NCBI GenBank assembly: GCA_964534365.1
Contig: CAZHOI010000002.1
Span: 8,138-72,137, forward strand
Source: an uncultured Candidatus Saccharibacteria bacterium
GTDB taxonomy: Bacteria > Patescibacteriota > Minisyncoccia > Phycocordibacterales > SW-6-46-9
Direction of reading: 5' to 3'
Length of the DNA: 64,000 bases
Part shown: piece by piece, positions 7,242 through 37,504 of the stretch
Layout: every line of letters starts with the position of its first letter
Numbering within the stretch: position 1 is the first letter of the stretch
Notes under the pieces: generated by a model
The model's database searches: none
Seen by the model: the letters and a program-made list of their open reading frames with translations, nothing else
Told to the model about the DNA's origin: nothing
Position numbers and translations under genes: made by a program

Positions 7242-9023
7242 TTATTCAATGGTTTGCATCATCCAGACATTGGGACAGTCGTAGCCAAAACCATTCCAGC
7301 GACACACAAAGTTAAGAATATAACCGGGTGTAGTCAATTGAGTTTGTGGTATCTGAGCAAATCCTCCTTCACGCAACCAAGCCGAATTAATCCTACTGCC
7401 ATTGCCGCTAGGTTCCAAAGTAAATGATTGCCACGAATCACCATTCCAGTAATAACCCAAATCGTATATTATGTCACGACCATCATCGACCCCGACCACT
7501 AAATCAACTTGGCTACCGTCGCAATCAGCATTTACCAAATTATTACCATCATTGTCTAATGGATCTGCATATCCCGGTGGCACCTGTGATCCATCCGAGA
7601 TACCATCACAATCACCAATTGCAGTGTTTGAACCAGGTCCGGTATCAAAATCAAGCGAAGTCATAAACAAAGACTCATCAGGCGACCTAGTTGCCAGATA
7701 TATATTATTATCTAATACCGCCAAAGCACTAAATTCCCCTGCTGTAGAATATAGCTCCAAAATTTCTTCAACTGTTTCGCCGTTAGTTCTGTAAACTTTT
7801 TGGGTGCCATTGTGTGGGTGGGATAAAAACATGACCGTATTTTCGTCTGTTTTATAAATATCCAGAACATCTGATACGTAACTTTCGTTGTTCTCAATTT
7901 CAAATATAACTTCTGTAGTACTTGATGTTAAATCAGTCGAGGCATACAATTTACCAGCTCTAGCTATCAAAACCTCTTCTCCGGTTGAATCGATAATGAC
8001 CTCAGCCTCTTCTAGTGCCCAGCTGTAATTACTCAAGCTTTCAGGAAAAACATCGCTACGAAGCCTGGCCTCGGACCTGAATCCCGCCGAGTATTCTGGA
8101 TCGTATTTCATCAAAAAAGTCGCCTGAGGTTCTCCGTCGCGAACACCAAAACTGGTTGGTGGCAAATTTGAGTTAACTGCGTATACGTTACCTTTAAATT
8201 CGAAAATTTCCGTTATACTACCCCCAACTTCATCGTCATTATTATCTGATAATGGTTGTAAATACTGGGTAAAACTTTCTCCATTATCGATACTTACCGC
8301 AATTCCAGGATAACGATGGCGTAATCTACCGCTAGGATATCTACCATCAGTTGTTTTGTCCATGTCAATAAACACTTCGGTATTTTCAGTACTACTATTT
8401 ACCCTTGCGAATGTAGCTCGAGAATGTTCGCCGTTACTAGCCTGTTCAAAATCCCAACTTCCATCTTCGTTACGTCTAAACATTTGAATCCCCCCGCCAA
8501 TGGCATCTAGGCTATTGTAATATAAATTATTATCAATTTCTTGAATGCTTGAAGTTCCTTCTTGAGGCAATCTTCTAATTCTGGTCTCATTATTATTAAC
8601 ATAAACGTCGTGCCCCCATTGTGTTGCCATTACATCATAATAGATTGGAACTACATTTGGCCCATTGGGAAACCCAGTTGCATAAGTAGCTATAAAAACT
8701 TTTTTTTGAGTACTGGTATTAACTGTTGCCAAATCTTGAATGTTGTCTCGATAATCGTCTGGGTTGTTGTAATAAGTTGCATATGGTGATCCCAAGGGTT
8801 CTAATTCAGGGTTCGCTGTTGCAATAGGTCCAGTATTTTCCCCCAATACTAATCCCGGCATTATAATTGGTTTTAACACATTAGCTATCGCAGGACTAGC
8901 AGCAAAACTTATCATTAGCAATGCAGAAATTAATCCAAAACCAGAAAAAATATTCGCAATTTTGATCACTAATAAACATTGTATCACTTTTATTTTAATT
9001 GCTGCTGTAATATACCTTGCCAT
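7242..9023 (-). CDS. Secreted protein with beta-propeller-like body and C-terminal thrombospondin type-3-like Ca-binding repeats (DxDxDGxxD)
   Basis: N-terminal signal/TM; C-terminal DCDGISDGSQV...DPLDNDGNNLVNADCDGSQVD repeats. Confidence 0.5.
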   Translation of the reverse strand: MARYITAAIKIKVIQCLLVIKIANIFSGFGLISALLMISFAASPAIANVLKPIIMPGLVLGENTGPIATANPELEPLGSPYATYYNNPDDYRDNIQDLATVNTSTQKKVFIATYATGFPNGPNVVPIYYDVMATQWGHDVYVNNNETRIRRLPQEGTSSIQEIDNNLYYNSLDAIGGGIQMFRRNEDGSWDFEQASNGEHSRATFARVNSSTENTEVFIDMDKTTDGRYPSGRLRHRYPGIAVSIDNGESFTQYLQPLSDNNDDEVGGSITEIFEFKGNVYAVNSNLPPTSFGVRDGEPQATFLMKYDPEYSAGFRSEARLRSDVFPESLSNYSWALEEAEVIIDSTGEEVLIARAGKLYASTDLTSSTTEVIFEIENNESYVSDVLDIYKTDENTVMFLSHPHNGTQKVYRTNGETVEEILELYSTAGEFSALAVLDNNIYLATRSPDESLFMTSLDFDTGPGSNTAIGDCDGISDGSQVPPGYADPLDNDGNNLVNADCDGSQVDLVVGVDDGRDIIYDLGYYWNGDSWQSFTLEPSGNGSRINSAWLREGGFAQIPQTQLTTPGYILNFVCRWNGFGYDCPNVWMMQTIE

Positions 9024-9053
9024 ATCACCTATTAGTCGTTTTTATAATCGAAT

Positions 9054-11036
<1,983 letters not shown>

Positions 11037-11065
11037 TTATTAATAGTATACGGTTGTTAGTCAGG

Positions 11066-11112
11066 TTTTTTCAAAAAAAAGAACCGCACTCCATGCCCCA
11101 TTGGAGTGCGGT
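11066..11112 (-). terminator. Rho-independent terminator (hairpin ACCGCACTCCA-n7-TGGAGTGCGGT followed by a T-run on the minus strand)
   Basis: Inverted repeat 11083-11112; the A8 run at 11073-11080 is a U-run on the minus transcript; sits at the left edge of the GC-rich island. Confidence 0.6.
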
Positions 11113-11121
11113 GCGGGTACT

Positions 11122-11307
11122 TCATCGGGCAAGCGGCCCGACAGACGTTACTGCTACCAGGTACAGAAACAGTGCCAGGAGCGCGATAGCGCGACCAGCA
11201 TTAGTTCGAAGTACCCAATCTAACAGTTTGCCGGTTTTGGATATTATCCAGTCTTTGCAGTCTGCGCAAAGTGCAGTCCAAAGGACTTGCATTTCTGGAT
11301 TACGCAT
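11122..11307 (-). CDS. Small hypothetical protein with a hydrophobic C-terminus, inside the GC-rich island
   Basis: 61-aa ORF only; composition matches the island. Confidence 0.25.
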   Translation of the reverse strand: MRNPEMQVLWTALCADCKDWIISKTGKLLDWVLRTNAGRAIALLALFLYLVAVTSVGPLAR

Positions 11308-11526
11308 GATTCTAGGGGAAAGGACAAACCACGAGACGGGGCCGCGTATGGCCGGGCTTCATAATCAACTCGAAGCTGGTGAAACCCTGACTAATTGCGG
11401 TCGGATCAGCAGGCTAGCTGGCCAGGTGGCTTGATCTTAATATAGCAAATTAAGCGTTGTAACAAAATACCCCTAAACCAAATCCAAATGGTCAAGGGGT
11501 CGGATCAAAAGAACAGAAGGAACATG

Positions 11527-11964
11527 CTATTCCAACACCTCGTGCTGGGGTGGGACTAATCTCAACTGAACGCAAACCGGGTGGTCGTATTGCGGTGCAA
11601 TGCCCACCGGCTGACCGTCCAAATAAATTATCGCTTTCGGATCAATAATTTGGAAACGATCCCCTAACCACAGTCCGGACGCATCCGGCAGATTTAGCAA
11701 CACCCAATCATATCCAGGGGCAGAAACTTGAACTTCTGGCTGGCTGCGCCAGGCCAGCTGCACCAGCGTTCGATCATAGCAACGCACGCCCGCGATAATG
11801 TAGCGATGACGCAATTCAGATGGAGTCACTTCCTCCAGCCTGGCTTCGGAACTACTATCGTCCCATTGATAGATCAGCTTTGCAGCCGAGGGCTGTTGAT
11901 CGTTAGCGCTATTGGTAGCACACCCGCATAGCAGTAAGGTGGTTAAACAGATGATCGTTTTCAT
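11527..11964 (-). CDS. Putative lipoprotein (signal peptide plus Cys) within the GC-rich island
   Basis: N-terminus MKTIICLTTLLLCGCATNS; about 55% GC versus about 38% background. Confidence 0.5.
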   Translation of the reverse strand: MKTIICLTTLLLCGCATNSANDQQPSAAKLIYQWDDSSSEARLEEVTPSELRHRYIIAGVRCYDRTLVQLAWRSQPEVQVSAPGYDWVLLNLPDASGLWLGDRFQIIDPKAIIYLDGQPVGIAPQYDHPVCVQLRLVPPQHEVLE

Positions 11965-11965
11965 G

Positions 11966-12175
11966 TTAACGGCCAGAAGGGGTTGTGGTTGTATCGGCGG
12001 AGAGCTTTTCTATATAAGCTCTTTTCTCTTTATTAACATTAACTAGGTTTGTTCGCTCGGTAGCGATAGCATATTTAGCACAAAACGGAAAAAACCATAA
12101 AATAAATGCAAGTCCTAATGCATACACTGGAATAGTGCAATACAGCAACTTTGCTGCCTCGGCTAACTTATCCAT
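11966..12175 (-). CDS. Small membrane protein (hypothetical)
   Basis: 69-aa ORF with one hydrophobic helix; start abuts the stop of the lipoprotein gene. Confidence 0.3.
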   Translation of the reverse strand: MDKLAEAAKLLYCTIPVYALGLAFILWFFPFCAKYAIATERTNLVNVNKEKRAYIEKLSADTTTTPSGR

Positions 12176-12302
12176 GGTGATTCGAGCTGGTTTGTGAAAA
12201 CGTCCAATAATAGCTTAACTTAAAAAGCATTTATAAAGCAACAAATAGGGTGAGGGTGATAGGGTGCCAGCCACTCTGACAGATGGCTAATATGTTGTGT
12301 AA

Positions 12303-12905
12303 TTAAATATCGAAATTATACGAATACTCGAGCGCGCGTTCAACCGGCCGGACACTACTGCCGGATTTACCCCTCGCGCGAATTTTCACATATTGCCTTC
12401 CCCCATTTTCATAAGTGTAGAAGGTAACATTAGCACTACTATCATTAGATAATTTCAAACCAAGTGCTCTGTAGCATTTATGAACAGAAGCTGACGAACT
12501 TTCGTTAAAGCCATCACAATTTGTCGCATTAGCTTTTCCGTCATCGTTAGGATTAGTTCCATTAGGATAATCGGGACTAAAGTACTCTAGTTCAAAATCA
12601 CCACCAATATTTGCGCACTTTATTGCTAGTTCACCTGTTTCAGTATCGTCAATATCCCCAAAAAATAAATTGTTTACCAAATCGTGATAGGTAAAACACT
12701 CCAGCGCGGTGTCGGCGGCAAACAATGCAATTGCCGAGTTTTTACCAGTTTGTGAGAGTACATTTTCGCGAAACACAAATCCCGATACTGCCGCCACTAT
12801 GGCAGTAAAGGCGGCCGTTAAAATTACCGCGATCAGCAAGGTTACTCCGCGTTGTGACGGGCGCGATCCGGCAAAGCGCATGAACTTTATCAAACTACAT
12901 TTCAT
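12303..12905 (-). CDS. Secreted protein with pilin-like N-terminal hydrophobic segment (hypothetical)
   Basis: N-terminus ...QRGVTLLIAVILTAAFTAIVAAV resembles a class III signal but lacks Glu5; Cys-rich C-terminal half. Confidence 0.4.
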   Translation of the reverse strand: MKCSLIKFMRFAGSRPSQRGVTLLIAVILTAAFTAIVAAVSGFVFRENVLSQTGKNSAIALFAADTALECFTYHDLVNNLFFGDIDDTETGELAIKCANIGGDFELEYFSPDYPNGTNPNDDGKANATNCDGFNESSSASVHKCYRALGLKLSNDSSANVTFYTYENGGRQYVKIRARGKSGSSVRPVERALEYSYNFDI

Positions 12906-12977
12906 ATCTTCTACCCTTATTCTACCACCATTTAATCACCAAAATATCCCCAGATATTACACCACATATTTAACAAA

Positions 12978-12996
12978 CCCTGGGTGACTGTCACCC
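12978..12996. repeat. REP-like palindrome CCCTGGGTGACTGTCACCC (same family as the RAYT-flanking repeats)
   Basis: Identical core to 27401-27418. Confidence 0.6.
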
Positions 12997-13159
12997 CCTT
13001 CTCACCCCCTTCTTTAGTAATAAGATAAGGATAATAAAAAATCCCATTGCTATACGTAGTAACAACAGGCTTCTACACTTTCTATATCTTTTTCATATTA
13101 CCCAGCACCACTCTTTTAGCAAGAGTGGTGCTGGGTCGTTCGTCTTTGACCTTGGCCTA

Positions 13160-15223
13160 CTAGCGCACTATCGTCAGTCGCTGATTGATCGGCGGCTGAC
13201 CGTCCACGATCAAGCGGACAAAGTAGACCCCCGGTGCGACGTCCGTGAGGTTCAGTGGGTGCTCGGAAGCGCCCACTGGTACCAGACCGCGAACCTTAGC
13301 CACCTGACGGCCGAGGCCATCAAATACCTGGAGGTCCATCAGGGTCGAGGTCAGCACCTCAATGACAGCCGTCACCGGACCCTGGGTAGGGTTGGGCTGA
13401 AGCCGTAGCGCAAGCGCCATTGCTTCGGGCCCATCTTCATCAGGGGTAGCATATACCACCTGCTGGAAAGCAGATGGTGCCGTGACTAACTCGTCCTTCC
13501 AGTCGCGGAAAAGCGGCTGGATAGTGACGTTGCACGCCTGGCCATCGCGGACAGTAGGACCTTCTAGCGGCAATGCATAAACTACCACATCAGGATCGCG
13601 CCTGGCAGTCGAGTGGTCCTGATCAGTGACCGCAAGCGGTCCGATCAAGAACGTGTCACCACAGGTAATCGTGGCATCGAATCGCTCGACCAGCGTGTTG
13701 CTGGAGGTGAACGATAGAGACCCTACTCCATCAGCAGTGAAATCGAGCGAGACCGAAGCCTCGTCAATTTGTGCCCCGGGCGGGGTTGCCGGCAGCAGGT
13801 TAACTGGTGCCGTAATCCGCGTGCCTTCCAGAACCTGACGGTCCTCATAAGTGCCACGACCCCGGGCCACACACGATAGGCTGGCCTGCTGTGCGCCCAG
13901 TCCCAGTCGCGAGAACTGGAAGGTCAGTGTAGTGTCGTCATCCGTCACCCAGCGATCCTGCAGTTCGCGTCCGACGATCAGGCTGATCTGACCCTGGTCA
14001 TTTTCAAACGTGCACTCCAGGTCGTTGACCTGGCGCTGACGATTGATTGTGACCTTGGCCTCGACGATTGCTTCCCCAAAGGGATCAATCGCCTCGAGCC
14101 CAGATAGCTCGGCACCGGGCGCGATGATCTCCACGAACAAGTCCGACAATCTAGACGTACCGCTGACGCGGTGACGACCGATTGTACAAACCGATCCATC
14201 CGACTGCACTTCATAGCCATTGCTGGATTGAAACGCAGCGCCGACCCAAACGTGCACTGAATCGGTTGTCACCTCTGACAGGTTAAAGACGTCGCCGTAG
14301 GGGGCAACGTCGCCATCAAGGCGCGGGATCAGCTGGCGGAACGGATCATTATGCTTAGACTGAACACCAGGGGTGTTCGGGTACAGCACTTGACCATTAG
14401 GATCAACTACCACCAGATGACAGGCCAGGGTCGAGCAATGAAGGTTTAGCCAGATCTGGGATCGCTGATCAGCTGTGTAGCCACTTAGATCCACAGTGAA
14501 CACCTGTCGCTCGACATCTCCTTCGACTCGCTCGAAATTCGGGTCATCAAACCGCGCCAGTACCCCACCGACCAGATTAGGACGGACAGTTGGCCCGTCG
14601 CTCGAGCAGCTCATGTCCCTAATGGGGAGCTCGATCACTCTGGGCGCTACCCGCGAGTCAACCCACATGGTGTGGGTGTCATCAGGAGTAGGGCCAAAGC
14701 CGGGGCCGGTTAGGACCTGGGTAGTTTGTGGGTCGTAGTCAACCCCTTCAATTCCCGTTGCTACCACCAGATCCTCGCAAGCGGGGACGTACTGGTGAAT
14801 TAACGGGAAGTTCATATTTGAAAGGTTGCGGGTCCAGGTACCGCTGGGTAGACTCTGGCCTGTTACCGTATCCGTCCCATTGACCGACCATAACCAAGAT
14901 GTATAAGATCCGCCGGGCTGAGATCCCAATCCCCCAGCTTCCATCGCCAGACGATACAATCGTCCGGTTGAACAGTCGCCCATCATCCGGACGATATCAA
15001 CATCCTGGCGCAGGCCATCCGCATTGGTTTCAACGTCAAAGACAACCGTGCCAATCTGGGTCGCTGATCCAATGGTCGGCGCCTGATTGACGAACGGGGC
15101 AATGTCGCCTGATTCCTCCCAGATCTGCGTGTGCAGATCCGAGTTGTTCCCCTGCGAGAGGGCGAGGTTGTTGGTAAGCATGGCGAACATTCCTGCCGCC
15201 AGTGCGATCATGAAACGTGCCAT
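13160..15223 (-). CDS. Secreted protein with a T9SS (Por-secretion) type-A C-terminal sorting domain; about 60% GC
   Basis: Signal peptide MARFMIALAAGMFAML; C-terminus ...PNPTQGPVTAV..LQVFDGLGRQVAKV..LNLTDVAPGVYFVRLIVDGQ..RLTIVR matches the Por_Secre_tail consensus. Confidence 0.75.
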   Translation of the reverse strand: MARFMIALAAGMFAMLTNNLALSQGNNSDLHTQIWEESGDIAPFVNQAPTIGSATQIGTVVFDVETNADGLRQDVDIVRMMGDCSTGRLYRLAMEAGGLGSQPGGSYTSWLWSVNGTDTVTGQSLPSGTWTRNLSNMNFPLIHQYVPACEDLVVATGIEGVDYDPQTTQVLTGPGFGPTPDDTHTMWVDSRVAPRVIELPIRDMSCSSDGPTVRPNLVGGVLARFDDPNFERVEGDVERQVFTVDLSGYTADQRSQIWLNLHCSTLACHLVVVDPNGQVLYPNTPGVQSKHNDPFRQLIPRLDGDVAPYGDVFNLSEVTTDSVHVWVGAAFQSSNGYEVQSDGSVCTIGRHRVSGTSRLSDLFVEIIAPGAELSGLEAIDPFGEAIVEAKVTINRQRQVNDLECTFENDQGQISLIVGRELQDRWVTDDDTTLTFQFSRLGLGAQQASLSCVARGRGTYEDRQVLEGTRITAPVNLLPATPPGAQIDEASVSLDFTADGVGSLSFTSSNTLVERFDATITCGDTFLIGPLAVTDQDHSTARRDPDVVVYALPLEGPTVRDGQACNVTIQPLFRDWKDELVTAPSAFQQVVYATPDEDGPEAMALALRLQPNPTQGPVTAVIEVLTSTLMDLQVFDGLGRQVAKVRGLVPVGASEHPLNLTDVAPGVYFVRLIVDGQPPINQRLTIVR

Positions 15224-15433
15224 GAGGGTATGGTTAGCAATCTACAGACTCCGTTCGGGCTGTAGAAAAAAGTATAGAAAGTGTCAAAGGACCAGACCAG
15301 AACACATCAGTGCCCAGATCCAATGACCTTGACACTAACATGGTTTGGTTACATAACTATTAAACCATAGTTTTATTAACCATGTAGCAAAAACAGCCTT
15401 GACAGACTGTTCAATAGTTGTATAGATAATGAT

Positions 15434-17779
15434 TTAGAACTCCACTATACCTCCCCCAGCATCATTTAGAATATTGATTGTAACATCTGCGCTGTGTGTA
15501 TTGTTATTATCATCACCGATGGCTGTAAGAATTTTCTTACCACGAGGCATTCTGTTTTGAAGTATGAATTCAACGTTTTGTGCACCACCACAATTGCCGG
15601 CACTACAATTAAATTCTAGATTAGAAGGATTGGTTGTAAAACTGCCAGTACCCAAATCCGAGGAACTAAATGTAACGTCAATTTGTCCGTTGTAACCGGA
15701 TCCTACATCAGGTATGACACGAAATTCTGGTATTGCATCACCGGTTACCCCAGGAACAGTAATTGTTGGTGGGGTTGGGCTAATAATTAATAGTCCATTA
15801 AACCCATCCACTGGGGGGAGGTCTTCGCTACAGTCAATTGCAAAGGTATACGGTTGACCAGATTGAACGTCTTTAAGATTGTCTGGACCAATATTAACAA
15901 CATATCCTGGAACAGGCTCGACAACTAGACGAAACCTTTGTGAATCACCAACTGGAATCGGTTCAGAATGTGAATCAGATTCACCTTGGTCCAGTGATCC
16001 AGTTAAAACAATATTATTACCATTACCCCTGATCAGTTCGAAATCAACCTCTTGACTACAACTGGACTGAACATTTACAGCTGTATTTGGTCCGGCCCCG
16101 GCATTGTAATTACCCTGAACTAATAACTGTCCAGACGCCAGTACTTCCGGAGTGATTAATACGCTAAATATTTTCTGGGTAGTTGTTAATTCATCAACAA
16201 AATCGTCAGGTACTAGCTCATAGGCGATTCTCCCTGGATTTACAGAGTCGCGCCTAGTAGTTTCATTATTTAAATACAGACCCTGATAATCAAGCCCGTC
16301 GGGTACGGCGGTAGGTTCTTCTAGGATAAATTCGATGGTATCTCCAGCTGATACTCCGATTAAAGTGTCAGATACGCCGTTATCGTCATTAAAAGCAACC
16401 TCTTTCTCTTGTGGAACAATTGAAGGAGGCACAGCCCGGAAAGTTTTAGTTTCGGTAGTTAGATCTTCATCAGCTCCAACCGCATTTAATTTATATACCA
16501 CCTCAATATCTCCAGTTATCGGCGTACCCACCCTAGCTGTGGCCGCAAACAGAACATCAATGGCAGACATATGCGATCGGGTTGAAAATCCACTGGTAGG
16601 ATATTCGCAGTCAATTATTAGCCGCTGACTACCTCTTACCAGCACCTTTGTGTCCAAGACAACCTTATTGGCTGCAGAATCATATGTAACATCTGGATCA
16701 GTTATATCAATAGGTCGCATTGCTTTTGGCCAACCGGTATTACATGATTTATAACCTGGGGTTAATTGAACTTGCAAATTAATTTTATCGCCATCTTCTA
16801 GATCAGCGGTACTTACTTGAATTGATGGTATTGCTCCGTCTGATTGATTTGAACTAGTTGACAATGCATTGTTTGTAGTTAATGTAATTACTGGGTTATC
16901 GTTACTATCCGAATACGCAAAGGCCGAGGCGGTACCAGTACCGGCATCATTAGTACACGAAACTTTGTACTCCATCGAGTTTAAAGCGCTGAATTGTCTG
17001 CTACCTGAATTGGCCAGACCAGAGACAGTATTTATAGCGTCAGAATGTCCATAAATATGTTCGGAAATTTGACAAGAATCTGCGTCTTCGCTGGTCCAAG
17101 TAACTTCAATATTGTTAGGAGTTCTGCTTGAAAATAATCCTGATGCTGGTTGGGTTACTTGGGCACTGACAACAGGGACTGATCTTCTAACATCAACAGT
17201 CAATTCATTAACTAAATCCGGAGAACCACTGGACTCTTGCCAGCTGCCGTCATTATCAACCACACATTCCCATTTATACTCTTCACAGAAACCATCGACT
17301 TCGTTTTCACACAGACCCCGGACCTTTTCATAAGGGCGCTCGATTTGTGTTGAAATTAATTCAAAGTCATAACCATCTGATGCTGAAGGGGCTTTTAAAT
17401 TATATGTTCTAGTTGCATTTGACAAGTTGGCTGGCGGACTGTAACCATTAGTTGGAATTGGCCATTCATAACTCATTCTACCCCAGCTACTGTCATGATC
17501 ACCAACACGTTCCAATCTGAATCCCGACGCTACTTCACGACCACATGTTTGCCATTGACTTACCGATCCTTCATTGCCTTCAGTGCGGTAATACCCTTTG
17601 GCAATAACATCAAATGATTGCGTTTTATCAACTGAAATAGACGCTCGTGATCCAACTGAATTTGTATCTATGGTAACGCTAGGAGTTTGAGCATACAAAT
17701 AAGCACTACAACCTAAAATCGCAACTACTGCTAATAGAATTTTGAATACCCTGTTTCGTTTAAAATTTAAGAGTTCCAT
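15434..17779 (-). CDS. Large secreted Ig/beta-sandwich-rich surface protein, possibly pilus-associated adhesin (hypothetical)
   Basis: 781 aa; N-terminal signal peptide; Ser/Thr/Asn-rich; last gene of the pilus operon. Confidence 0.55.
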   Translation of the reverse strand: MELLNFKRNRVFKILLAVVAILGCSAYLYAQTPSVTIDTNSVGSRASISVDKTQSFDVIAKGYYRTEGNEGSVSQWQTCGREVASGFRLERVGDHDSSWGRMSYEWPIPTNGYSPPANLSNATRTYNLKAPSASDGYDFELISTQIERPYEKVRGLCENEVDGFCEEYKWECVVDNDGSWQESSGSPDLVNELTVDVRRSVPVVSAQVTQPASGLFSSRTPNNIEVTWTSEDADSCQISEHIYGHSDAINTVSGLANSGSRQFSALNSMEYKVSCTNDAGTGTASAFAYSDSNDNPVITLTTNNALSTSSNQSDGAIPSIQVSTADLEDGDKINLQVQLTPGYKSCNTGWPKAMRPIDITDPDVTYDSAANKVVLDTKVLVRGSQRLIIDCEYPTSGFSTRSHMSAIDVLFAATARVGTPITGDIEVVYKLNAVGADEDLTTETKTFRAVPPSIVPQEKEVAFNDDNGVSDTLIGVSAGDTIEFILEEPTAVPDGLDYQGLYLNNETTRRDSVNPGRIAYELVPDDFVDELTTTQKIFSVLITPEVLASGQLLVQGNYNAGAGPNTAVNVQSSCSQEVDFELIRGNGNNIVLTGSLDQGESDSHSEPIPVGDSQRFRLVVEPVPGYVVNIGPDNLKDVQSGQPYTFAIDCSEDLPPVDGFNGLLIISPTPPTITVPGVTGDAIPEFRVIPDVGSGYNGQIDVTFSSSDLGTGSFTTNPSNLEFNCSAGNCGGAQNVEFILQNRMPRGKKILTAIGDDNNNTHSADVTINILNDAGGGIVEF

Positions 17780-19800
17780 ATTTCGTTTTGGTTACATTCA
17801 ATTTCAATGACTTTATTATCAGGTACGGTTACTGGTATTGGCTCTGTAGAAGACATAGTGACTAGCCCATCCGTCCAGCTACCACGACACTGATCGGCAT
17901 TAGTAGATGACCATTCTACCCAGATAGTTTCGCCTGGTTGTAATTCAGTATCAGGATCTATTGCTGGACCGCCATTGCTTCGAGAAACGATCAAATCAAC
18001 CTCGGGCAGATCACGCCAGGTATGGATCCTAAAGATCATCTCTTCGATATCACCGTTTGAATTCTTTACCGCCGTTAACTGACTGGCAATAGTGTTAATC
18101 ATACCTTCATTACCGTCGCCTAAATTATCTGAAAAGGCTTGGTATTTATTGGATTCCCTACTACTAGTTATCATCATACCCACTTGTCGTCCGTTTTCAT
18201 AAATAAAGGGGTTTTGTTGAGTTGGAATCAGCCTAAACGGAGATTGACCACAATTTGCCGTTGCATTATCTAAACCATCAACACTAAATACCCTAAATTC
18301 AAGCTCTGGGTCTAGGGCCGAACAATGAACCGTAACGGGAATAGTCTCGCCAGCGGTTGGATCTACTATCAAAGTGACTCGTTCAGTACCAGACCGATTT
18401 CTAAAACTAGGGTTAAATTCTGGATTATTTGTATCTGGCTCCAGGCTTAGCTGTCGAATAATGTTCCTATAACTGTATTCGGATTCAAATCCATAATCAA
18501 CTTCCTTAGAGCTGTGATCGGTTACAAAGTTTTGAGTTTCTACATCTATGAAATAAGTTCCTGCAATAGTAGGTGCGGTGCCTTTGATAACTGCATTTGA
18601 ATGAAAATCTGATTTTGGTAGGCCTGAATAATTATTATAAACATAATTACCAAGTTCTTCGGTGACATAAGGACCACTTTCAGGTAAATTCAATACTTCC
18701 ACACAACCTCCCCCAGAACATCGTTGATGACGACCTTCGGGTAGACCAGCGCCAGGGCGATGCGAAGTTATGTTTGCTCGTTGGCCGTTACTGGCAGTAA
18801 TTGCGCCAGCCGAAAAGGCTTGTCTTTCAAGGACATATTCACTATAGATGCTATTTTCGCCATAAAATGCGGAGTCAGGATTGGCAGTAGCGACATATTC
18901 AAAATTAGCACCAGGGGCCACTGTCAAGGTATCGGGCGCAACATCAAATTCAAATTGTTCTTGTGGTTCGCAAGCATAAGTGGGTATTCTTAAATCAGCA
19001 TATAAAGCTGACATTAATTCCTCAGCCCCATTTGCATTGTCTAATGAAGATTGCTCTGTTAACACACGTGAAACTAGGTTGACTCTGTTACTGTCAATTG
19101 GTATTTCTAAATTAAATTGGGTTTCAAATACAGTGTCATACGGGGCACGACCATCAACTTCGAAATAGACATCATAAAGAGCTTGCGCAAGATCCCACCA
19201 TTCTGGACTCATTTTATTTAGATGTTCAACATCTTCATAGCTGTTACTATTCATGGCCTCAATTGTTCTTGTTATATGCATCCAAAACTCTCTATATTCA
19301 TTATCAACCAAACCATTTATTTCTTCTCCTGGCCAAGTATTACTCAAACTTCTGTCTAAAAAGTAAATTCTACTAGCTCGATTGTATGGAGGTGACGCAT
19401 GATCGCCTTGGTCATGTATATTATAGAGATAGTTCATTACATCACTATCTATACCAGAGATATCAAAATTAACATTCATTGTTGACGCATTGACAGAACA
19501 AGACAATGTTACTTCTGCACCAGAAAAAGTGTTTCCATCAGAAACATCAATGATCCCAAAACTTCTCAATCTATCAACGAGTTGATCATTAAGTTTACAA
19601 GTCAAATTTGAATCAGAACAGTCGTAAGTTTCCGAAAAAGCTTGGGCTTCAACTGGCTGACTTTGCTCAAAGTAAAAAAATCCGACGATCATGGCGGCGA
19701 TTGTAAACACCGATACTGCTGAATGTAATTTATTGTTCGGCTTCATATGGTTTATTCCAGGATACACTAACTTCACTGCCAGTTTCGATCGGAACTGCAA
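17767..19800 (-). CDS. Large secreted/membrane-anchored protein (hypothetical; PilY1-like role is speculative)
   Basis: 677 aa; N-terminal TM after a probable internal start (MKPNNKLHSAVSVFTIAAMIVGFFYF); overlaps the neighbouring genes by a few codons, indicating an operon. Confidence 0.55.
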   Translation of the reverse strand: MQFRSKLAVKLVYPGINHMKPNNKLHSAVSVFTIAAMIVGFFYFEQSQPVEAQAFSETYDCSDSNLTCKLNDQLVDRLRSFGIIDVSDGNTFSGAEVTLSCSVNASTMNVNFDISGIDSDVMNYLYNIHDQGDHASPPYNRASRIYFLDRSLSNTWPGEEINGLVDNEYREFWMHITRTIEAMNSNSYEDVEHLNKMSPEWWDLAQALYDVYFEVDGRAPYDTVFETQFNLEIPIDSNRVNLVSRVLTEQSSLDNANGAEELMSALYADLRIPTYACEPQEQFEFDVAPDTLTVAPGANFEYVATANPDSAFYGENSIYSEYVLERQAFSAGAITASNGQRANITSHRPGAGLPEGRHQRCSGGGCVEVLNLPESGPYVTEELGNYVYNNYSGLPKSDFHSNAVIKGTAPTIAGTYFIDVETQNFVTDHSSKEVDYGFESEYSYRNIIRQLSLEPDTNNPEFNPSFRNRSGTERVTLIVDPTAGETIPVTVHCSALDPELEFRVFSVDGLDNATANCGQSPFRLIPTQQNPFIYENGRQVGMMITSSRESNKYQAFSDNLGDGNEGMINTIASQLTAVKNSNGDIEEMIFRIHTWRDLPEVDLIVSRSNGGPAIDPDTELQPGETIWVEWSSTNADQCRGSWTDGLVTMSSTEPIPVTVPDNKVIEIECNQNEIWNS

Positions 19801-20272
19801 TTACACTAACTGATTGATTGCCATTCTGCGCGCTGTAATAATAGGTTTGCCCATCATCTGGGGTAGTGTAATCGGTATCAGTCACAGCTAACAAATCCTC
19901 GGTTTTTGAAACTAGCTGATCCAGGGCCTGTTCTGGCGTCAGGGTGCTGCGATAATTTATACTAGTGGTAGTGGTTTGACTGCCAAAATCAGAACGGTTA
20001 ACACCAATTACTTCGGCATTATTTGGGACTAAATCTGAGATACCGAAACTGTCCAGATCATCAGAAGTTACTTGCCCAGGATCGCTAAACCGCAGGTTTT
20101 GATTGGTGCGTTCGCCATAGGTTGAAGTCTCGATCGTGGCTGGTTCCAAGTCTGCATTTTCCCCACCGCGCAACACTAACCACAATATCAAACCTACAAT
20201 TAACAACACGACCAATGCCAAAACCGCAAAACTGTATTTGGTTAACTTTCGGGATAACACCATTTGGTTCAT
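19730..20272 (-). CDS. Single-pass membrane protein (hypothetical, pilus-operon member)
   Basis: 180 aa; N-terminal TM FAVLALVVLLIVGLILWLVL. Confidence 0.45.
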   Translation of the reverse strand: MNQMVLSRKLTKYSFAVLALVVLLIVGLILWLVLRGGENADLEPATIETSTYGERTNQNLRFSDPGQVTSDDLDSFGISDLVPNNAEVIGVNRSDFGSQTTTTSINYRSTLTPEQALDQLVSKTEDLLAVTDTDYTTPDDGQTYYYSAQNGNQSVSVIAVPIETGSEVSVSWNKPYEAEQ

Positions 20273-20338
20273 AGTATAGCGATAATGTTAGTAAATGCTG
20301 TTTGGAGTGTTGATAACTAGGAATCTATGGGTTACTGA

Positions 20339-20962
20339 CTATGTAGTAGAGCTGAAATCAGGCAATGGATACAACACCTCTTGCAATACCACCTGACCAT
20401 TTTGGCCGCTTTGTAATTTAAATTGAACAGTAGAGGTGATTTCGTAAATTGTAGTTTCAACAAGGTCTGTGCTTCCATCAGAATCATGATCAAAATCAAT
20501 TTCTACTTTATTAAATTCGATTAAACGCGAGTATAGCGTTATATTTCCGTCATTGATTGTATAATTTCCCCCGGATTGCAAAGTTAATTTAGCATCATCA
20601 TCATCAATGTCATTAACTGAAACGAATGCAGCGCCGCCTGGAATATCGCCGGTAGCATCCACATTACATTTATTAGTTGATTTACAATTATCAGGAAATA
20701 AATTGTCGGAATTAGCAATATTACTTCCCAATAATTCTAGTCGGGCTGAATCACGGTATGCCCTTATTGCCTCGATACCCTCGACCGCTAGATACGAAGC
20801 GGTTGTTTGTTCGGCAGCATAGCGTTGCGCCCGCATCGAATCAAACATAACCGACGTAGCAGCAACAGACACAGTCAAAAATACCGCTATGGCCACTAGG
20901 GTTTCGACCAAGGTAATACCTGAATCAAGGCCTGTTCTACGGTTGTATTGACGGTATTTCAT
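20339..20962 (-). CDS. Type IV pilin-like protein (minor pilin/pseudopilin) with prepilin cleavage motif
   Basis: ...DSG|ITLVETLVAIAVFLTV (G-x-T-L-x-E motif). Confidence 0.75.
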   Translation of the reverse strand: MKYRQYNRRTGLDSGITLVETLVAIAVFLTVSVAATSVMFDSMRAQRYAAEQTTASYLAVEGIEAIRAYRDSARLELLGSNIANSDNLFPDNCKSTNKCNVDATGDIPGGAAFVSVNDIDDDDAKLTLQSGGNYTINDGNITLYSRLIEFNKVEIDFDHDSDGSTDLVETTIYEITSTVQFKLQSGQNGQVVLQEVLYPLPDFSSTT

Positions 20963-20974
20963 ATAAATTATTTA

Positions 20975-21535
20975 TTAGTAGTTATCATACCGTCTTTGGG
21001 TTACTAGGGTTTGATAGGTTACCTCGCGAGCGTCAGGAAAATCACCTTTGGCCGTAATAGATATTAAGGCATGAGGCTGTTCAATGTCAGAACCCGAGTC
21101 ATAACGATCATCCCCCGATACTGCTACATCAAAATTGGTAATAATAATGTTTGATGGAGACAGCGGAATTTCTGGACTGCTACCCCCTAAGTCTCTGGTT
21201 AGTTTAAGTTGGTTGTTGTCTGCTCTTAAACTATATGCTTCGCCTGGGGTAATTATGTCAGTTTTGAAACTAAATGCTCCAGAATTCCAATTATAGTCGT
21301 ATCCAACCCGTGCGTTTCGGGCAACATCCTCTAATACTAAATCCATAGCTTGTGACACTTGCTGTTGTTGACGAATTTCACGATTTGACCGCAAAACCGA
21401 CACGGTCGCTGATGACGAGACCATAACCACAATTAAAAATAATGCCATAGAGACAATCAATTCCACTAAAGAATAGCCATCATTGATATTTTTGCCTTGC
21501 AAACGATTAATTGTGTTTTGAAGCTTTAGGATCAT
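20975..21535 (-). CDS. Type IV pilin-like protein (minor pilin/pseudopilin)
   Basis: ...NDG|YSLVELIVSMALFLIVV. Confidence 0.75.
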   Translation of the reverse strand: MILKLQNTINRLQGKNINDGYSLVELIVSMALFLIVVMVSSSATVSVLRSNREIRQQQQVSQAMDLVLEDVARNARVGYDYNWNSGAFSFKTDIITPGEAYSLRADNNQLKLTRDLGGSSPEIPLSPSNIIITNFDVAVSGDDRYDSGSDIEQPHALISITAKGDFPDAREVTYQTLVTQRRYDNY

Positions 21536-21538
21536 AAT

Positions 21539-22390
21539 TTATTTAACGTAAATTCCCCCACTGGCGTCAATTACTACAAACTGATGATTGCCACTGGGAC
21601 GATCGGCGGTGTCAATTATGATCTCTACCCTTTCAACCTCGAAAATGTCTTCTCGATTGTTTATTAGGATCAAATCATCAGTACTTGAATTAAAATTATT
21701 GATATACTCTGGATCATTACTATAACCGCAGTTTTTAGCAGCAGATATTCTAGGCTGTAATAAAGGTCTAGAGTAAATTATAGACGGATTAAAGCTCGGT
21801 GTATCAGGCTCGATACAAAAGTCGGAATCCCCAATGTAGATTGGCGGCGTTGCACCGTGATAATCGTCTGAACAAAAGGTTGGATTAGATCCTTCACCAA
21901 AAAAACATACTTGCTTAACGACAAGAGGGCTATTCAATTTAATTGGGAAGATTCCATCTTGTTCGGACGAATCCGTATAATAACCATCTTCAATACTGTC
22001 GACAAATTGCACAAATTTAGCGTCGTGTTTGTTGGTTAAATCTAAGTATATACCACGATCATAATCACTATCTGCAGTTGTGACTAGCACATCAGTAGCT
22101 TGTGATTGCTGTTCGCGGAATAAAATAGCCAGTTCATGCGCGGCATTTTTCAGCCTGACACTCTTGTTGAAATCCTGCTGTGACACCACAATCACCCCGC
22201 CCAGCATGGCCATAATTGCGATTGACACCATTAACTCAACTACTGTGAATCCAGCCGATTCCGATTGGATATTTATCTCATTAGTTGAATGAAGGTATTT
22301 GGCTAGCCATTTAATCATATTATTTAATTTATTCATTGAACGCGGCGACACCAAGTTTATTAATCTCTTCGAATGGGACCCGGTATTCAA
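21539..22390 (-). CDS. Type IV pilin-like protein (minor pilin); true start probably an internal Met
   Basis: ...SAG|FTVVELMVSIAIMAMLGG; the ORF's 5' end overlaps the pilB 3' end. Confidence 0.7.
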   Translation of the reverse strand: MNTGSHSKRLINLVSPRSMNKLNNMIKWLAKYLHSTNEINIQSESAGFTVVELMVSIAIMAMLGGVIVVSQQDFNKSVRLKNAAHELAILFREQQSQATDVLVTTADSDYDRGIYLDLTNKHDAKFVQFVDSIEDGYYTDSSEQDGIFPIKLNSPLVVKQVCFFGEGSNPTFCSDDYHGATPPIYIGDSDFCIEPDTPSFNPSIIYSRPLLQPRISAAKNCGYSNDPEYINNFNSSTDDLILINNREDIFEVERVEIIIDTADRPSGNHQFVVIDASGGIYVK

Positions 22391-24068
22391 ACGCTTTTAA
22401 AATAGCGTCTTCGCGCATGGTTAACATCCCGTCGCGTCGGGCCGCATCATAGATCTCGCCCTCGTTCGGGTCTTTTAATAAGATCTCATCAATTTCGCGC
22501 GTCATACGCATTACTTCAAATACCGCTTGACGACCAGATGTGCCTTTGGGACAACGGGCGGTTGGTTCTATCCCAAGCACAAATTCAGGGTAGGTAATAT
22601 GACTACGATATTCTGGCGCCAGATCTTCGAATTCGCTATCAATAATTTTTTTGACTGATCCCTCAATCGGAATTTTACGCCCGGTACCTTTACAAATTTT
22701 TTGAATCAACCGCTGACCGATTGCCAATTTCAAAGTTGGTGCGATTAAATATGGGTCGACCCCCATGTCTACCAGTCGAGGGATTACGCCGGTTGCGGAA
22801 TTGGTGTGAATAGTAGACAGCACTAGGTGGCCAGTTAGAGCCGCCTGGACCGCTAGTTGCGCAGTTTCCTTGTCGCGAATCTCACCCACCATAATAATGT
22901 CGGGGTCTTGACGTAAAACGGTACGTAATCCCGAGGCAAAGGTATAGCCAATATCGCCATTAACGGCTGACTGCGAAACGCCAGGAATTTGATATTCGAC
23001 TGGGTCTTCTAGCGACAGGACGTTCTTGGTCTTGCGATCAACTTGTTCCAGCATGGTGTATAACGTAGTTGATTTACCTGATCCAGTCGGTCCCGAAATC
23101 AGAATTAATCCATAAGGTTCATCAATTGCATTTTTAATCAACTCCAGATTGCGCTGTGACAATCCCAGAGAAGTTAAATCGCTGACATTACGACTAGATT
23201 CTAATAATCGCATTACAATTTTTTCACCAAATGATGTGGGGAATGTCGAGACCCGAAAATCAATTTTATGACCATCAATATGGGCACTGAAACGACCATC
23301 TTGTGGTTTACGTTTTTCGTCAATTCGCAGATTTGCCAGAATCTTTACCCGGGCAACAACAGCGGCATGAGTAGCTGCCGGCAGAGCCAAACTTTGTTTA
23401 AGAGCACCATCAACTCGAAAACGAACCTTGGTTTCGGTTTCGTAGGGCTCGATATGAATATCAGAAGCATGATCTTCTTTGGCATGACGAATAATGGTAG
23501 CTACAATTTTAGTAACGGGGGCAGCATTAGCATCCGGTTCACTGTCAACTGCATTTTCAACTGGTTTATCAGGTTCAAGGATTAACTCGCCCTCTAATTC
23601 AGACAAGGCTGATCCAACTTCGTTAATTAATTGATCAACTGATCCGGTTGCCTGATCAAAATCCAATTTGGTAACTACTAGTATTTTGAACGATAGCCCT
23701 AGGGACGAGGTGATAAAGTCCATGACCTCGCGAGCCCCTTCGCTATGAGGATTAACAAATCCAACTACTAGTTCATGATCTTTTTTATCCAGGGGAATAA
23801 TGCTGTACAGTTCAACTGTTTTGGCTGGAACCATCTTCAAGACTTCTTCTGAGATACTGTTGCCTGTAATCCGCTTACCAGGGAAATTATAGAATTGAGA
23901 TTTTATTTCCAAAACTTGATCCTGGGTAATATTAATTTCATCAAAGGCAATCTCGTAGTAATCGCCCTTTTCTACTTCCGAGCGAACTGTACGGTATTGC
24001 TCGGGGGTCAAAAAACCTTTTTCATTGGCAAAATCTAGGATTGATAGTTGTGTTTCCAGTTCTACCAT
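22329..24068 (-). CDS. pilB: Type IV pilus assembly ATPase PilB (GspE family)
   Basis: N-terminal GSPII_E_N-like domain; Walker A GPTGSGKSTT; Asp/His boxes; C-terminal tetracysteine-like CxxC. Confidence 0.9.
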   Translation of the reverse strand: MVELETQLSILDFANEKGFLTPEQYRTVRSEVEKGDYYEIAFDEINITQDQVLEIKSQFYNFPGKRITGNSISEEVLKMVPAKTVELYSIIPLDKKDHELVVGFVNPHSEGAREVMDFITSSLGLSFKILVVTKLDFDQATGSVDQLINEVGSALSELEGELILEPDKPVENAVDSEPDANAAPVTKIVATIIRHAKEDHASDIHIEPYETETKVRFRVDGALKQSLALPAATHAAVVARVKILANLRIDEKRKPQDGRFSAHIDGHKIDFRVSTFPTSFGEKIVMRLLESSRNVSDLTSLGLSQRNLELIKNAIDEPYGLILISGPTGSGKSTTLYTMLEQVDRKTKNVLSLEDPVEYQIPGVSQSAVNGDIGYTFASGLRTVLRQDPDIIMVGEIRDKETAQLAVQAALTGHLVLSTIHTNSATGVIPRLVDMGVDPYLIAPTLKLAIGQRLIQKICKGTGRKIPIEGSVKKIIDSEFEDLAPEYRSHITYPEFVLGIEPTARCPKGTSGRQAVFEVMRMTREIDEILLKDPNEGEIYDAARRDGMLTMREDAILKAFEYRVPFEEINKLGVAAFNE

Positions 24069-24094
24069 AAATTACTAATTTTTAGTGTCACAAA

Positions 24095-24601
24095 TTAAAA
24101 CGAAGGTACATTCCCATTAAATGCCGGGACCTGATTATTTGAATTTGTTGCGGGTGCAGTTGAGTTTGGCGAATTAGTCGATGCTTGATTGGTTGAAGTC
24201 TGATTAGTCGCTTGTGTTGGGCTAGATTGTGGTACAAATGTGTTATTAGTTGGAATCGTGGTGTTTCGCTGCTCGATAATAACACGAGCATCAATTGGTG
24301 AAAAAGGATTAGAACGACCAGCTTCAATTTCACTTAATTCGACAGTGTTATCTTGCAATTGTTGAAATTCTGGATTATCTAGAACCTGAGCTTGTGATAA
24401 ATCTATTTGTTGCAATTGCTGGATTTGGTTTATAAATAATGTTTCCGACTGGGCCAGGTTTTGATCTATTGGCAAACCAGAGTCAACTACCAATTCGGAA
24501 TCTGTACGCGAAAAGGTATCGCCTATTGATGGCATTAGTACAATTAAGATGACAATAACAATTGCAACTGCACCGATTATAATTAAGTGTTTCTTTTTCA
24601 T
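24095..24601 (-). CDS. Bitopic pilus-assembly accessory protein (PilP-like?), Gln/Asn/Thr-rich tail
   Basis: N-terminal TM; GRSNPF motif; position between pilO and pilB. Confidence 0.4.
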   Translation of the reverse strand: MKKKHLIIIGAVAIVIVILIVLMPSIGDTFSRTDSELVVDSGLPIDQNLAQSETLFINQIQQLQQIDLSQAQVLDNPEFQQLQDNTVELSEIEAGRSNPFSPIDARVIIEQRNTTIPTNNTFVPQSSPTQATNQTSTNQASTNSPNSTAPATNSNNQVPAFNGNVPSF

Positions 24602-24614
24602 AACGTTTTATAGC

Positions 24615-25241
24615 TTAAGTTCCTAGCCAATAAGTTCGTAATACTACTTGGTAGTTGTTCAAATTGGTACCAGATTCGCTGTTTGCGTTTTCTGAATTGT
24701 CTACAGTCACAGATTGAATGTCAGTTAAGCGTAAATTATTTTCGAGACGGGTTAGAAAATTTTTAAATTCGTCATAGTTCCCGGTAGCTGACAAGGTCAT
24801 ATCTACTGAGGAATAATCAGCTCCTGACTGGATTGAAGAGGTGTCGTCGCCTGTGTCTTCGGAATTCTCACTATCAGAACTTTCGTTACTGGTGGTTGTG
24901 TCAGCAAAAGAGAATTCTTCGATTTCTATCCCGGTTGTATCAGCAATTGAAGACACTTCGATCGTTAGTCGAACTGTATCAATATTTCGCGGTAGAAACT
25001 TCTCGAGCCGATCTCTTTTTTGTGCATCAATTGATTCTAGCTGCTCTTGCAAATCATTTCTAAGTTCGGCTAATTCATCAGCTTGCTGGAGGGCGGTTTC
25101 ATAAGACTCGGCTTCGGCCTTTAGAGTTTGATAAACCTGGTACTCTGAGCGAGTATAAGACAGAGTCAAACCAATGGCTACAATTATTAAAACAATTGAA
25201 AGTATAAATTTATTCATAGATATTAATATTAACAGCTGCAA
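24615..25241 (-). CDS. pilO: PilO-like pilus assembly protein (TM plus coiled coil)
   Basis: N-terminal TM; coiled-coil region; synteny pilN-pilO. Confidence 0.55.
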   Translation of the reverse strand: MQLLILISMNKFILSIVLIIVAIGLTLSYTRSEYQVYQTLKAEAESYETALQQADELAELRNDLQEQLESIDAQKRDRLEKFLPRNIDTVRLTIEVSSIADTTGIEIEEFSFADTTTSNESSDSENSEDTGDDTSSIQSGADYSSVDMTLSATGNYDEFKNFLTRLENNLRLTDIQSVTVDNSENANSESGTNLNNYQVVLRTYWLGT

Positions 25242-26782: not shown

Positions 26783-27358
26783 TTATTTTTTTGAGGTATA
26801 ATTTTTTATATTTTCCTTCTCTGTTGTAGTCAGATTTCTGTTCAAATCTTCCAAATATGTAGTCGGTAGATCAATCGGTAAGTCATTGTCAACAATTTTG
26901 TATCTGGCAAATCTGCGATTATGCGCACTCCCCCATTTCCAATCTTCTGCCTTATCTACTAAATTTGCCCTTTTTGCATTTCGTTCAATATAGCGAAGTA
27001 GATTGTAAAAATACTTATCGTCTCTAATATGAAAAGATTTATAACGACCTTGGTATAAATGACCAAATCCCACTTGACTATACTTAGATTTAAACCTTTT
27101 AACGTGAGTATTGGTTAGTCGGCGCATAAAATTACCTAATTCACCATTAATTTGTGGTGACACTAAAAGGTGCCAATGATTAGGCATTACGCAAAAACCC
27201 AAGACTTTGACATTGAACAAATCTTTGGTTTCATCAATTAATAATAGAAATTCTTGATAATCATTATTATCTTTAAAAATTTTAATCTTGTTATTTGATC
27301 GATTTAATACATGATAATACTCGCCTGCAATATCTGTTCTAGGTAAGCGGCCCATCAA
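26783..27358 (-). mobile_element. IS200/IS605-type HUH Y1 transposase, REP-associated tyrosine transposase (RAYT)-like
   Basis: HUH motif VMPNHWHLLV; conserved N-terminal YHVLNRSNN; C-terminal catalytic Tyr region; flanked on both sides by REP palindromes. Confidence 0.8.
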
Positions 27359-33439: not shown

Positions 33440-33590
33440 ATACCTTTATATTTGAATAGTTTTAGATATTTTCATCTTGTAAACCTTGTCACACCAGTTT
33501 AGGGTTCGCTATTGCCTCCAGGCGGACTGTGTCCGCCGTAGGGAGCTATGGCGACCGAAGCCAGTGAGTGAGGCCTGCCTTCCGCAGGCA

Positions 33591-33646
33591 GGGATTGGAA
33601 CCCTCGGTACCAATAAAGGTACGCTTCCTTAGCAGGGAAGCCCATT
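33591..33646 (-). pseudogene. Truncated tRNA-Ser-like fragment (anticodon arm, variable arm and T-arm only). It is a 56-nt paralogue of the adjacent tRNA-Ser 3' portion with compensatory changes in the variable-arm stem
   Basis: Identical 23-mer CTTCCTTAGCAGGGAAGCCCATT; variable stem GGTACC/GGTAC versus AGGCC/GGCCT; lacks the acceptor 5' strand and D-arm. Confidence 0.55.
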
Positions 33647-33665
33647 TTTACCCGACACACCAATG

Positions 33666-37409: not shown

Positions 37410-37504
37410 ACTTCATTAATAAAGCTTGTCAACTGTCCCTGGCACCCTTTTCATGGCAGAGGTTACTTTAAAGCTAATTCTTCTCTTTCATAAAAGTCAC
37501 TACG

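Follow-up and report, generated by a model that had tools for sequence, protein, structure and literature searches.

How a gene for a protein with a type IX secretion system (T9SS) sorting tail came to stand among the genes of a bacterium of the Patescibacteria, or candidate phyla radiation (CPR), is the question raised by a stretch of 64,000 nucleotides on contig CAZHOI010000002.1 of an uncultured Candidatus Saccharibacteria bacterium (hereafter the window, with positions counted from its first letter). The gene encodes a 687-aa protein (13160-15223, minus strand), and an initial annotation had placed it in an island of about 4.3 kb (11050-15330) with a guanine-plus-cytosine (GC) content of 55-60%, either acquired recently from a high-GC, Bacteroidota-like donor or joined to its surroundings by a chimeric assembly. 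T9SS cargo proteins with a type-A C-terminal sorting domain (CTD; families TIGR04183 and PF18962), such as RgpB, RemA, NucA and mirolase, belong to the Bacteroidota and the wider Fibrobacteres-Chlorobi-Bacteroidetes (FCB) group. The analysis reported here points with high probability to the recent horizontal transfer of a single gene, about 2.2 kb with its flanks, from a T9SS-bearing, Rhodothermales-like donor of the FCB group into a CPR locus of pilus and surface-protein genes.

Extent and composition of the foreign gene

The GC content of 1-kb windows ranged from 33% to 47% across the 64 kb, with outliers at 11-12 kb (49.6%) and 13-15 kb (56-57%). At 200-nt resolution, the interval 11050-15330 separated into three distinct parts with a mean GC of ~51%: ~48-54% over 11.0-12.0 kb, then 36-43% over 12.0-12.7 kb and 35-43% around 12.9-13.1 kb, and finally 52-63% over 13.1-15.3 kb. 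The sliding GC and tetranucleotide profiles therefore did not agree with one continuous 55-60% island. In the maximum-scoring-segment analysis the top result was a GC-rich foreign segment at 13101-15262 (2.16 kb; 57.4% GC vs ~41% for the window; log-likelihood ratio 123-126), which contains one gene together with ~40 nt upstream and ~60 nt downstream. A second, weaker GC-elevated patch was located at 11084-11927 (52% GC; log-likelihood ratio 21; tetranucleotide z ~2.5), with a score comparable to that of a tRNA region at 33.5 kb (score 19). The intervening DNA (11966-13100) was host-like, with 40.6% GC, and holds a 69-aa open reading frame (ORF), a PilX-like ORF and one copy of a repetitive extragenic palindromic (REP) sequence.

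The same partition was seen in the coding sequences. The 687-aa ORF has 57.6% GC and a GC content at third codon positions (GC3) of 0.63, against means of 40.9% and 0.35 (sd 0.047, maximum 0.447) for the 41 ORFs outside 11.0-15.3 kb. Within the interval, GC3 was 0.55 for a 145-aa ORF, and it fell inside the host range for the 69-aa ORF (0.33) and the 200-aa PilX-like ORF (0.38); the last two, which lie within the supposed island, are host-like in both GC and GC3. The tetranucleotide L1 distance to the rest of the window was 0.590 for 13101-15330 (z ~13), compared with 0.217 for length-matched host segments (sd 0.029, maximum 0.339); it was 0.428 for 11050-11965 (host 0.332, sd 0.038) and 0.338 for the middle part (host 0.297, sd 0.040). 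Relative synonymous codon usage (RSCU) of the 687-aa gene correlated negatively with that of the pooled host genes (-0.22), compared with 0.85-0.87 for the host LigA and 781-aa genes and 0.50 for the PilX-like ORF. These measures demonstrate that the 687-aa gene is compositionally foreign to its host, and its complete lack of amelioration speaks for a recent arrival.

The sorting domain, its relatives and the host cell

The 687-aa ORF was found as annotated, with a hydrophobic, signal-like helix at its N-terminus. The predicted Sec-type signal peptide (residues 1-23, MARFMIALAAGMFAMLTNNLALS|QG; 15155-15223, minus strand) was recognised by inspection from its charged n-region (R3), hydrophobic core and A-L-S|Q site, and the AlphaFold2 (AF2) model placed a helix at residues 2-22 within it (predicted local distance difference test, pLDDT, ~84). 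An orphan N-terminal body of ~350 aa follows, for which no fold was assigned (pLDDT ~27 over residues 24-370, in a model whose alignment was deep over the CTD only), then beta-sandwich domains predicted with moderate confidence at residues ~370-600, and lastly the CTD itself at residues ~597-687 (13163-13435, minus strand).

The tail scored 25.9 bits against the NCBIfam model TIGR04183, passing its cut-off of 23, and 23 bits against Pfam PF18962, below the gathering score of 27. An exhaustive HMMER search of 1.84 billion representatives returned ~270 proteins at E<=1e-3; essentially all the matches listed aligned with query residues ~590-687 only, at their own C-termini and in proteins of 80-1067 aa, which is the signature of a C-terminal sorting module. 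The exceptions were a fragment of this same gene and one real body homologue, and all the significant matches to either CTD or body were T9SS-type proteins. TIGR04183 was matched by 53 of 54 aligned sequences, in which P610, N611, P612, G638, G665 and Y667 were invariant or nearly so, giving the PNP and G-x-Y motifs. With a custom hidden Markov model (HMM) made from 53 relatives, the query being left out, the 687-aa ORF scored 94 bits (E 1.5e-27), while the six-frame translation of the window gave no other match and 925 kb from 80 loci recovered through LigA, almost all labelled as Patescibacteria, yielded no CTD. The predicted structure of the tail is a beta-sandwich as in solved T9SS CTDs, which were also its best structural matches. 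The C-terminal ~90 residues are thus a genuine T9SS type-A sorting domain by sequence, custom HMM and predicted fold, in agreement with the initial annotation, which had recognised the tail from its motifs.

Further searches were directed at the protein as a whole and at its body. Residues 362-476 and 477-596 did not show a significant internal duplication, PDB sequence searches with the 687-aa protein and with a two-sequence profile found no match, and a word-indexed homology search with the 687-aa protein was also negative. The comparison with PHROGs gave no phage signal; conserved body peptides, taken from the two-sequence alignment, retrieved no body relatives from metagenome contigs, and a scan of viral contigs for body relatives found none. 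Paralogues of the proteins of the region were not found within the window. Like T9SS type-A cargo, the protein combines a predicted N-terminal Sec signal, a variable body, immunoglobulin (Ig)-like domains and a ~90-aa beta-sandwich C-terminus with PNP and G-x-Y; unlike such cargo, it is encoded by a member of the Patescibacteria with no T9SS gene in 64 kb, its orphan body has a single homologue and its tail missed the PF18962 gathering score.

Codon usage also bears on the origin of the gene: the RSCU of the 687-aa gene correlated at 0.56-0.73 with T9SS-cargo and housekeeping genes on high-GC, CTD-bearing contigs. Where the context of relatives was read, their contigs had 67-80% GC, and one CTD relative was annotated as "Rhodothermales bacterium". 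The sole body homologue lies on contig ctg115470 of ENA assembly ERZ25070591 (locus L007; 73.8% GC), together with ExbB/ExbD and SPOR genes, and two of the best CTD matches lie on a 3.67-Mb contig of the same assembly, 70% GC in the 7.6 kb read there. The L007 homologue shares 67-70% DNA identity with the gene over ~1.2 kb and 59% protein identity over stitched in-frame pieces; it has no counterpart of query residues ~477-594, and many frame changes at 8119-9145 reflect either errors at 2x coverage or pseudogenisation. Relatives formed low-GC islets in contigs of ERZ25070591 and ERZ25039505 (L007:7841-9642; L094:611-2308; L095:7000-8483), with 49-59% GC in the L007 body vs 70-80% in its flanks, 55.7% vs 70.5% for the L094 gene and 57.6% vs 67% for the L095 gene. 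In L007 the body is low in GC and heavily frameshifted and the CTD is intact with 74% GC, an arrangement that may represent domain-level recombination or a pseudogene.

Since the nearest relatives are themselves low-GC islets, the genomic GC of the donor cannot be read from the 57% GC of the gene. The high-GC, FCB-type donor named in the initial annotation was upheld as regards the T9SS-type, high-GC company of the relatives, and a donor GC of ~57% does not follow. Islands having been found in every genome examined, this class of cargo genes is probably compositionally atypical, and so mobile, wherever it occurs. On the best reading, the donor was a T9SS-bearing, Rhodothermales-like gene pool of the FCB group.

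The recipient is far removed from that group. When LigA was compared with 185,579 species-representative genomes, the best matches were almost all labelled as metagenome-assembled genomes (MAGs) of Patescibacteria/CPR, including Paceibacterota, Kaiserbacteria and "Saccharibacteria", and none exceeded 50% identity, so that the host is a poorly sampled Patescibacteria lineage. T9SS machinery (PorK/L/M/N, SprA, PorV, PorU) was absent from the window ORFs, as previously stated, with ORF family searches and JGI Pfam calls in agreement. By descent and structure the 687-aa protein belongs to the T9SS cargo class, although in this cell it is probably not a functional T9SS substrate.

Junctions, flanking repeats and competing explanations

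Assembly products were examined for the joins between the gene and its surroundings; they came from two pipelines, JGI (four or more sample IDs) and Logan (two SRA runs), possibly from the same physical samples. Four contigs encode the 687-aa protein without any change. A 45-kb contig of JGI 3300040789 spans the whole locus at 100% identity, and the same identity was found for a 17.9-kb contig of Logan SRR7428105 (spanning 11226-25223), JGI 3300040788 (window start to 13738), JGI 3300040798 (12790-14166) and Logan SRR7428122 (window start to 12351); JGI 3300040799, which covers 9459-11837, differed by one single-nucleotide polymorphism at window position 11732. The 15.3-kb junction was spanned by JGI 3300040789 and Logan SRR7428105, and the 13.1-kb junction by JGI 3300040788, JGI 3300040798 and Logan SRR7428105. 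Logan SRR7428105 contributed two contigs, with a 27-nt overlap at 11226-11252. Of the two alternatives initially proposed, horizontal transfer was therefore the right one, as both junctions recurred at 100% identity in JGI and Logan assemblies, and the identity across samples indicates that the 687-aa gene is established in this population.

The segment is bracketed by an imperfect inverted repeat, with a left arm at 13070-13094 and a right arm at 15265-15289 (25 nt each; 21/25 complementary, 84%), both within 6 nt of its compositional boundaries. The 20-nt core (ACACTTTCTATAYYTTTTTC pair) occurs at these two sites only in the 64 kb (0.04 expected), and none of 5000 random pairs of host positions with the same spacing reached 19/25. 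Among 95 fetched loci, the motif was detected only in duplicate copies of this locus and as one isolated match in another (L053); loci with relatives of the gene did not have it, and inverted repeats around the L007 homologue were dominated by GC-rich noise. Viral contigs gave 21 matches, about the chance level; outside the 20-mer, the two from the same sample series were not similar to the window. The arms share the AT-rich composition of the host, and no target-site duplication or direct repeat was seen at the flanks by inspection.

Read along the gene strand (minus), the stop of the 781-aa gene (15434) is followed by a terminator-like hairpin, the right arm (15289-15265), 41 nt, the ATG (15223), the ORF and its stop (13160), a GC-rich hairpin (13136-13100), the left arm (13094-13070), a host-type hairpin with a T-run (13069-13043), the REP copy (12996-12982) and the PilX-like gene. 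The GC-rich hairpin (13100-13136, minus strand), at the inner edge of the left arm, has a perfect 16-bp stem without a U-tract on the gene strand, and its region had a folding z-score of -6.4; the host-type, terminator-like hairpin (13043-13069, minus strand) lies directly outside the arm. Two accounts fit this anatomy: the arms may be the terminal repeats of a passenger cassette, or foreign DNA may have entered the centre of a pre-existing 50-nt host palindrome. The bracketing by inverted repeats is the one feature that adds to those first described.

Explanations that dispense with the recent transfer of one gene fared poorly. Arrival of the whole 11.05-15.33 kb as one island in a single acquisition would account for two GC-elevated patches within 4.3 kb and for the orphan status of all the ORFs in the interval, but we consider it quite improbable: the patches differ in GC (50.5% for 11050-11965 vs 57.0% for 13101-15330) and their GC-normalised tetranucleotide profiles correlate weakly (r 0.35), the 1.1 kb between them resembles the host in GC, GC3, tetranucleotides and codon usage and carries a host REP, the inverted repeat encloses only the 2.2-kb gene, and neighbouring host surface-protein genes are orphans too. 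The near absence of homologues of the body, a trait shared with native CPR surface proteins, would suit a native CPR gene whose composition was made atypical by its protein composition or by local mutation bias; this is nonetheless very improbable, given that synonymous third positions deviate most (GC3 0.63 vs 0.35), that codon preference is anti-correlated with that of the host, that the CTD, like the sole homologue of the body, is at home in T9SS-type, high-GC organisms, and that no CTD was found in the 80 other Patescibacteria loci (925 kb). The sharp compositional steps, and the breaks of several assemblies in or beside the region, are what would be expected had an assembler joined a high-GC fragment of a T9SS-bearing organism into a CPR contig. 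Such a chimera would have required false joins to host DNA at both ends of the segment, and at least two assemblies reproduce each join at 100% identity; the gene was also present on two further contigs of 50-200 kb, and the segment consists of exactly one intact gene with its own hairpin, which makes a chimera extremely improbable.

Two other possibilities concern the way in which the gene travelled or is used. The segment could be a non-autonomous mobile cassette, with terminal inverted repeats mobilised in trans and the T9SS-cargo gene as passenger, in the manner of mobile insertion cassettes (MICs) and miniature inverted-repeat transposable elements (MITEs). It shares with these elements a 25-nt imperfect inverted repeat around a single passenger gene with no transposase inside, and the closeness of the 21/25 repeat to both boundaries, its uniqueness in the 64 kb, the absence of comparable random pairs and the island character of the relatives in their own genomes all speak for it. 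Unlike them, it lacks a target-site duplication, and the window has neither further copies nor a matching transposase; terminal inverted repeats are not among the substrates of the resident Y1/REP-associated tyrosine transposase (RAYT), the motif is lacking at the loci of relatives and its viral matches are unrelated and at chance level, and the host-like, AT-rich arms allow for insertion into a pre-existing host palindrome instead. We regard the cassette as unlikely. The CPR bacterium might also have taken the gene from its own Rhodothermales-like host and display the protein, with its CTD, as a host-mimicking ligand that docks to PorV or T9SS surface components; a related version makes the 25-nt repeats the mark of an undescribed FCB-CPR cassette for single surface-protein genes, and the occurrence of relatives as islands in every genome examined would fit such a shuttling cassette. 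Both versions are a long shot, although, if host mimicry were true, the gene would name the host of the epibiont and reveal an attachment mechanism.

Recent single-gene transfer from a Rhodothermales-like donor has to be set against several observations that weigh on the other side. Its junctions are supported by assembled contigs, not by reads; two assemblies break off shortly beyond the right repeat arm (15343 and 15370), and other contig ends lie inside the region (11226-11252, 12351, 13738 and 14166), where low coverage or presence/absence heterogeneity between strains could be responsible. There is no close host relative to show the empty site (LigA at most 50% identical, the 781-aa neighbour an orphan), and a boundary 33-mer, searched for an empty-site allele, had no match in a collection of metagenome contigs that apparently does not include these samples. 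The segment has no integrase, transposase, tRNA or target-site duplication next to it, the search for T9SS genes covered the 64-kb window, which is one part of the host genome, and the single body homologue, frameshifted, ~59% identical and placed on a contig of 2x coverage, does not allow the donor to be named.

Under the single-gene transfer, the gene would have been inserted between the 25-nt inverted repeats, or together with them, and DNA uptake through a competence-type pilus or a type IV secretion system (T4SS) is a plausible route. In a recipient without an outer membrane or a T9SS, the tail would not serve as a sorting or cleavage signal; deprived of translocon, PorV shuttle and PorU sortase, the CTD would remain as an inert C-terminal Ig-like domain, neither cleaved nor replaced by a lipid anchor. 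The gene may be a recently arrived, neutral passenger, or it may supply the pilus/adhesin locus with one more surface protein. The earlier statement that the tail has no function without a T9SS thus holds for the sorting tail, but does not extend to the whole protein: Patescibacteria have been proposed to lack an outer membrane (PMC12102498), in which case Sec export would be enough to externalise it, and the Sec signal alone would bring the protein to the cell surface or into the medium.

Gene transfers from Bacteroidota or Omnitrophota into Patescibacteria have been documented (PMC12455944), and the present event is a new example of this category, not a new kind. Like those transfers, it brought one compositionally foreign gene into a streamlined CPR genome from a donor group of FCB/Bacteroidota type; unlike them, it has as its cargo a surface protein specific to a secretion system, in a recipient that should lack the sorting machinery. 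No report of a T9SS CTD protein in CPR bacteria was found in the literature searched. This is otherwise an ordinary case of horizontal transfer, with three points of wider interest. A recent, unameliorated gene with a lineage-specific sorting tag speaks for physical proximity to T9SS-bearing FCB bacteria, and could be used as a clue for host prediction. A T9SS CTD match by itself does not mean that a genome has a T9SS, which calls for caution in automated annotation. The repeat bracketing and the low-GC-islet relatives hint at an unusually mobile class of surface-protein genes. Patescibacteria are mostly uncultured epibionts whose hosts are usually unknown.

The weaker patch and the neighbouring genes

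The 52% GC patch contains a putative lipoprotein ORF of 145 aa (MKTIICLTTLLLCGC...; 11527-11964, minus strand; lipobox-like N-terminus), an orphan whose homology search returned a single match, a 99% identical fragment of itself. This patch is probably a separate acquisition, weaker or older than that of the 687-aa gene. The ORFs of 61 aa (minus strand) and 113 aa (plus strand) at 11.09-11.43 kb gave no support either way. The 69-aa ORF (11966-12175, minus strand), a host-like membrane protein, ends a single base ahead of the 145-aa ORF; at 11964-11968 the sequence TAACATG joins the stop of the former to the ATG of the latter. The compositional step thus falls at the boundary between two translationally coupled genes, an odd arrangement for a foreign 145-aa gene. 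The 200-aa ORF (12303-12905, minus strand) is a host-like candidate for a PilX-like minor pilin, with a weak PilX_N match (E 0.072). A GC-rich terminator had been noted at the left edge of the interval, and a hairpin resembling an intrinsic terminator, with a T8 run, does precede ligA (11083-11112, minus strand); an Rfam search of 10950-13250 at a relaxed threshold gave only a chance-level miRNA match.

The REP palindrome in the host-like spacer (GGGTGACTGTCACCC, 12982-12996) belongs, as first described, to the family that flanks the RAYT-like gene: the motif GGGTGACWGTCACCC was counted at 12982, 26761, 27401 and 27935 (0.06 expected), and the Y1_Tnp/RAYT-like gene (26783-27358), which lies in the type IV pilus cluster, is flanked by the copies at 26761 and 27401. 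Its presence had been taken to argue that the island is embedded in this genome; the REP copy is real, but it sits in host-like spacer DNA and not in the GC-rich DNA, which weakens that argument. REP/RAYT systems are best known from Proteobacteria.

The type IV pilus system of the window comprises PilM, two T2SSE ATPases, PilC, PilO, a prepilin peptidase and at least six N-methyl pilins, and no secretin was found for this cluster among the window ORFs. FtsH, RecG, IF3, GatA/C, an L,D-transpeptidase and an ORF similar to T4SS coupling proteins are also encoded, together with several very large secreted proteins without a family match. Signal-peptide proteins of 781, 677 and 593 aa (15434-19800 and 7242-9023, minus strand) flank the region without matching any family, and appear as lineage-specific surface proteins attached to the pilus cluster; the 781-aa protein had no homologue in 5.8 billion clustered proteins, where its only match was to itself. 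The 959-aa ORF at 56069-58948 (minus strand) had weak matches to TrwB_AAD_bind, TraG-D_C and DUF87/HerA. Monoderm-type T4SSs have been described in Patescibacteria, and this ORF is probably the coupling/ATPase component of such a system, a possible route of DNA exchange.

A Shine-Dalgarno-like motif preceded 2 of 36 ORF starts in the window, and a TATAAT-like box was found 5-15 nt before many ATGs (e.g., 9054-11036, 19730-20272 and 53699-54307), a pattern that suggests widespread leaderless or very short-leader mRNAs in this host. With Shine-Dalgarno use near nil, the missing motif upstream of the 687-aa gene would be no barrier to its translation.

The tRNA calls contained two further peculiarities. 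AUA codons are normally decoded in bacteria by a lysidine-modified CAU tRNA, and ARAGORN detected a tRNA-Ile with the anticodon UAU at 37504-37577 (minus strand; Rfam tRNA 72.6 bits), a hint that this CPR lineage decodes AUA in an unusual way. Rfam backs only the second of two overlapping ARAGORN calls of tRNA-Ser(GCU), at 33580-33669 and 33665-33752 (minus strand); the first is perhaps an artefact, or else a degenerate duplicate.

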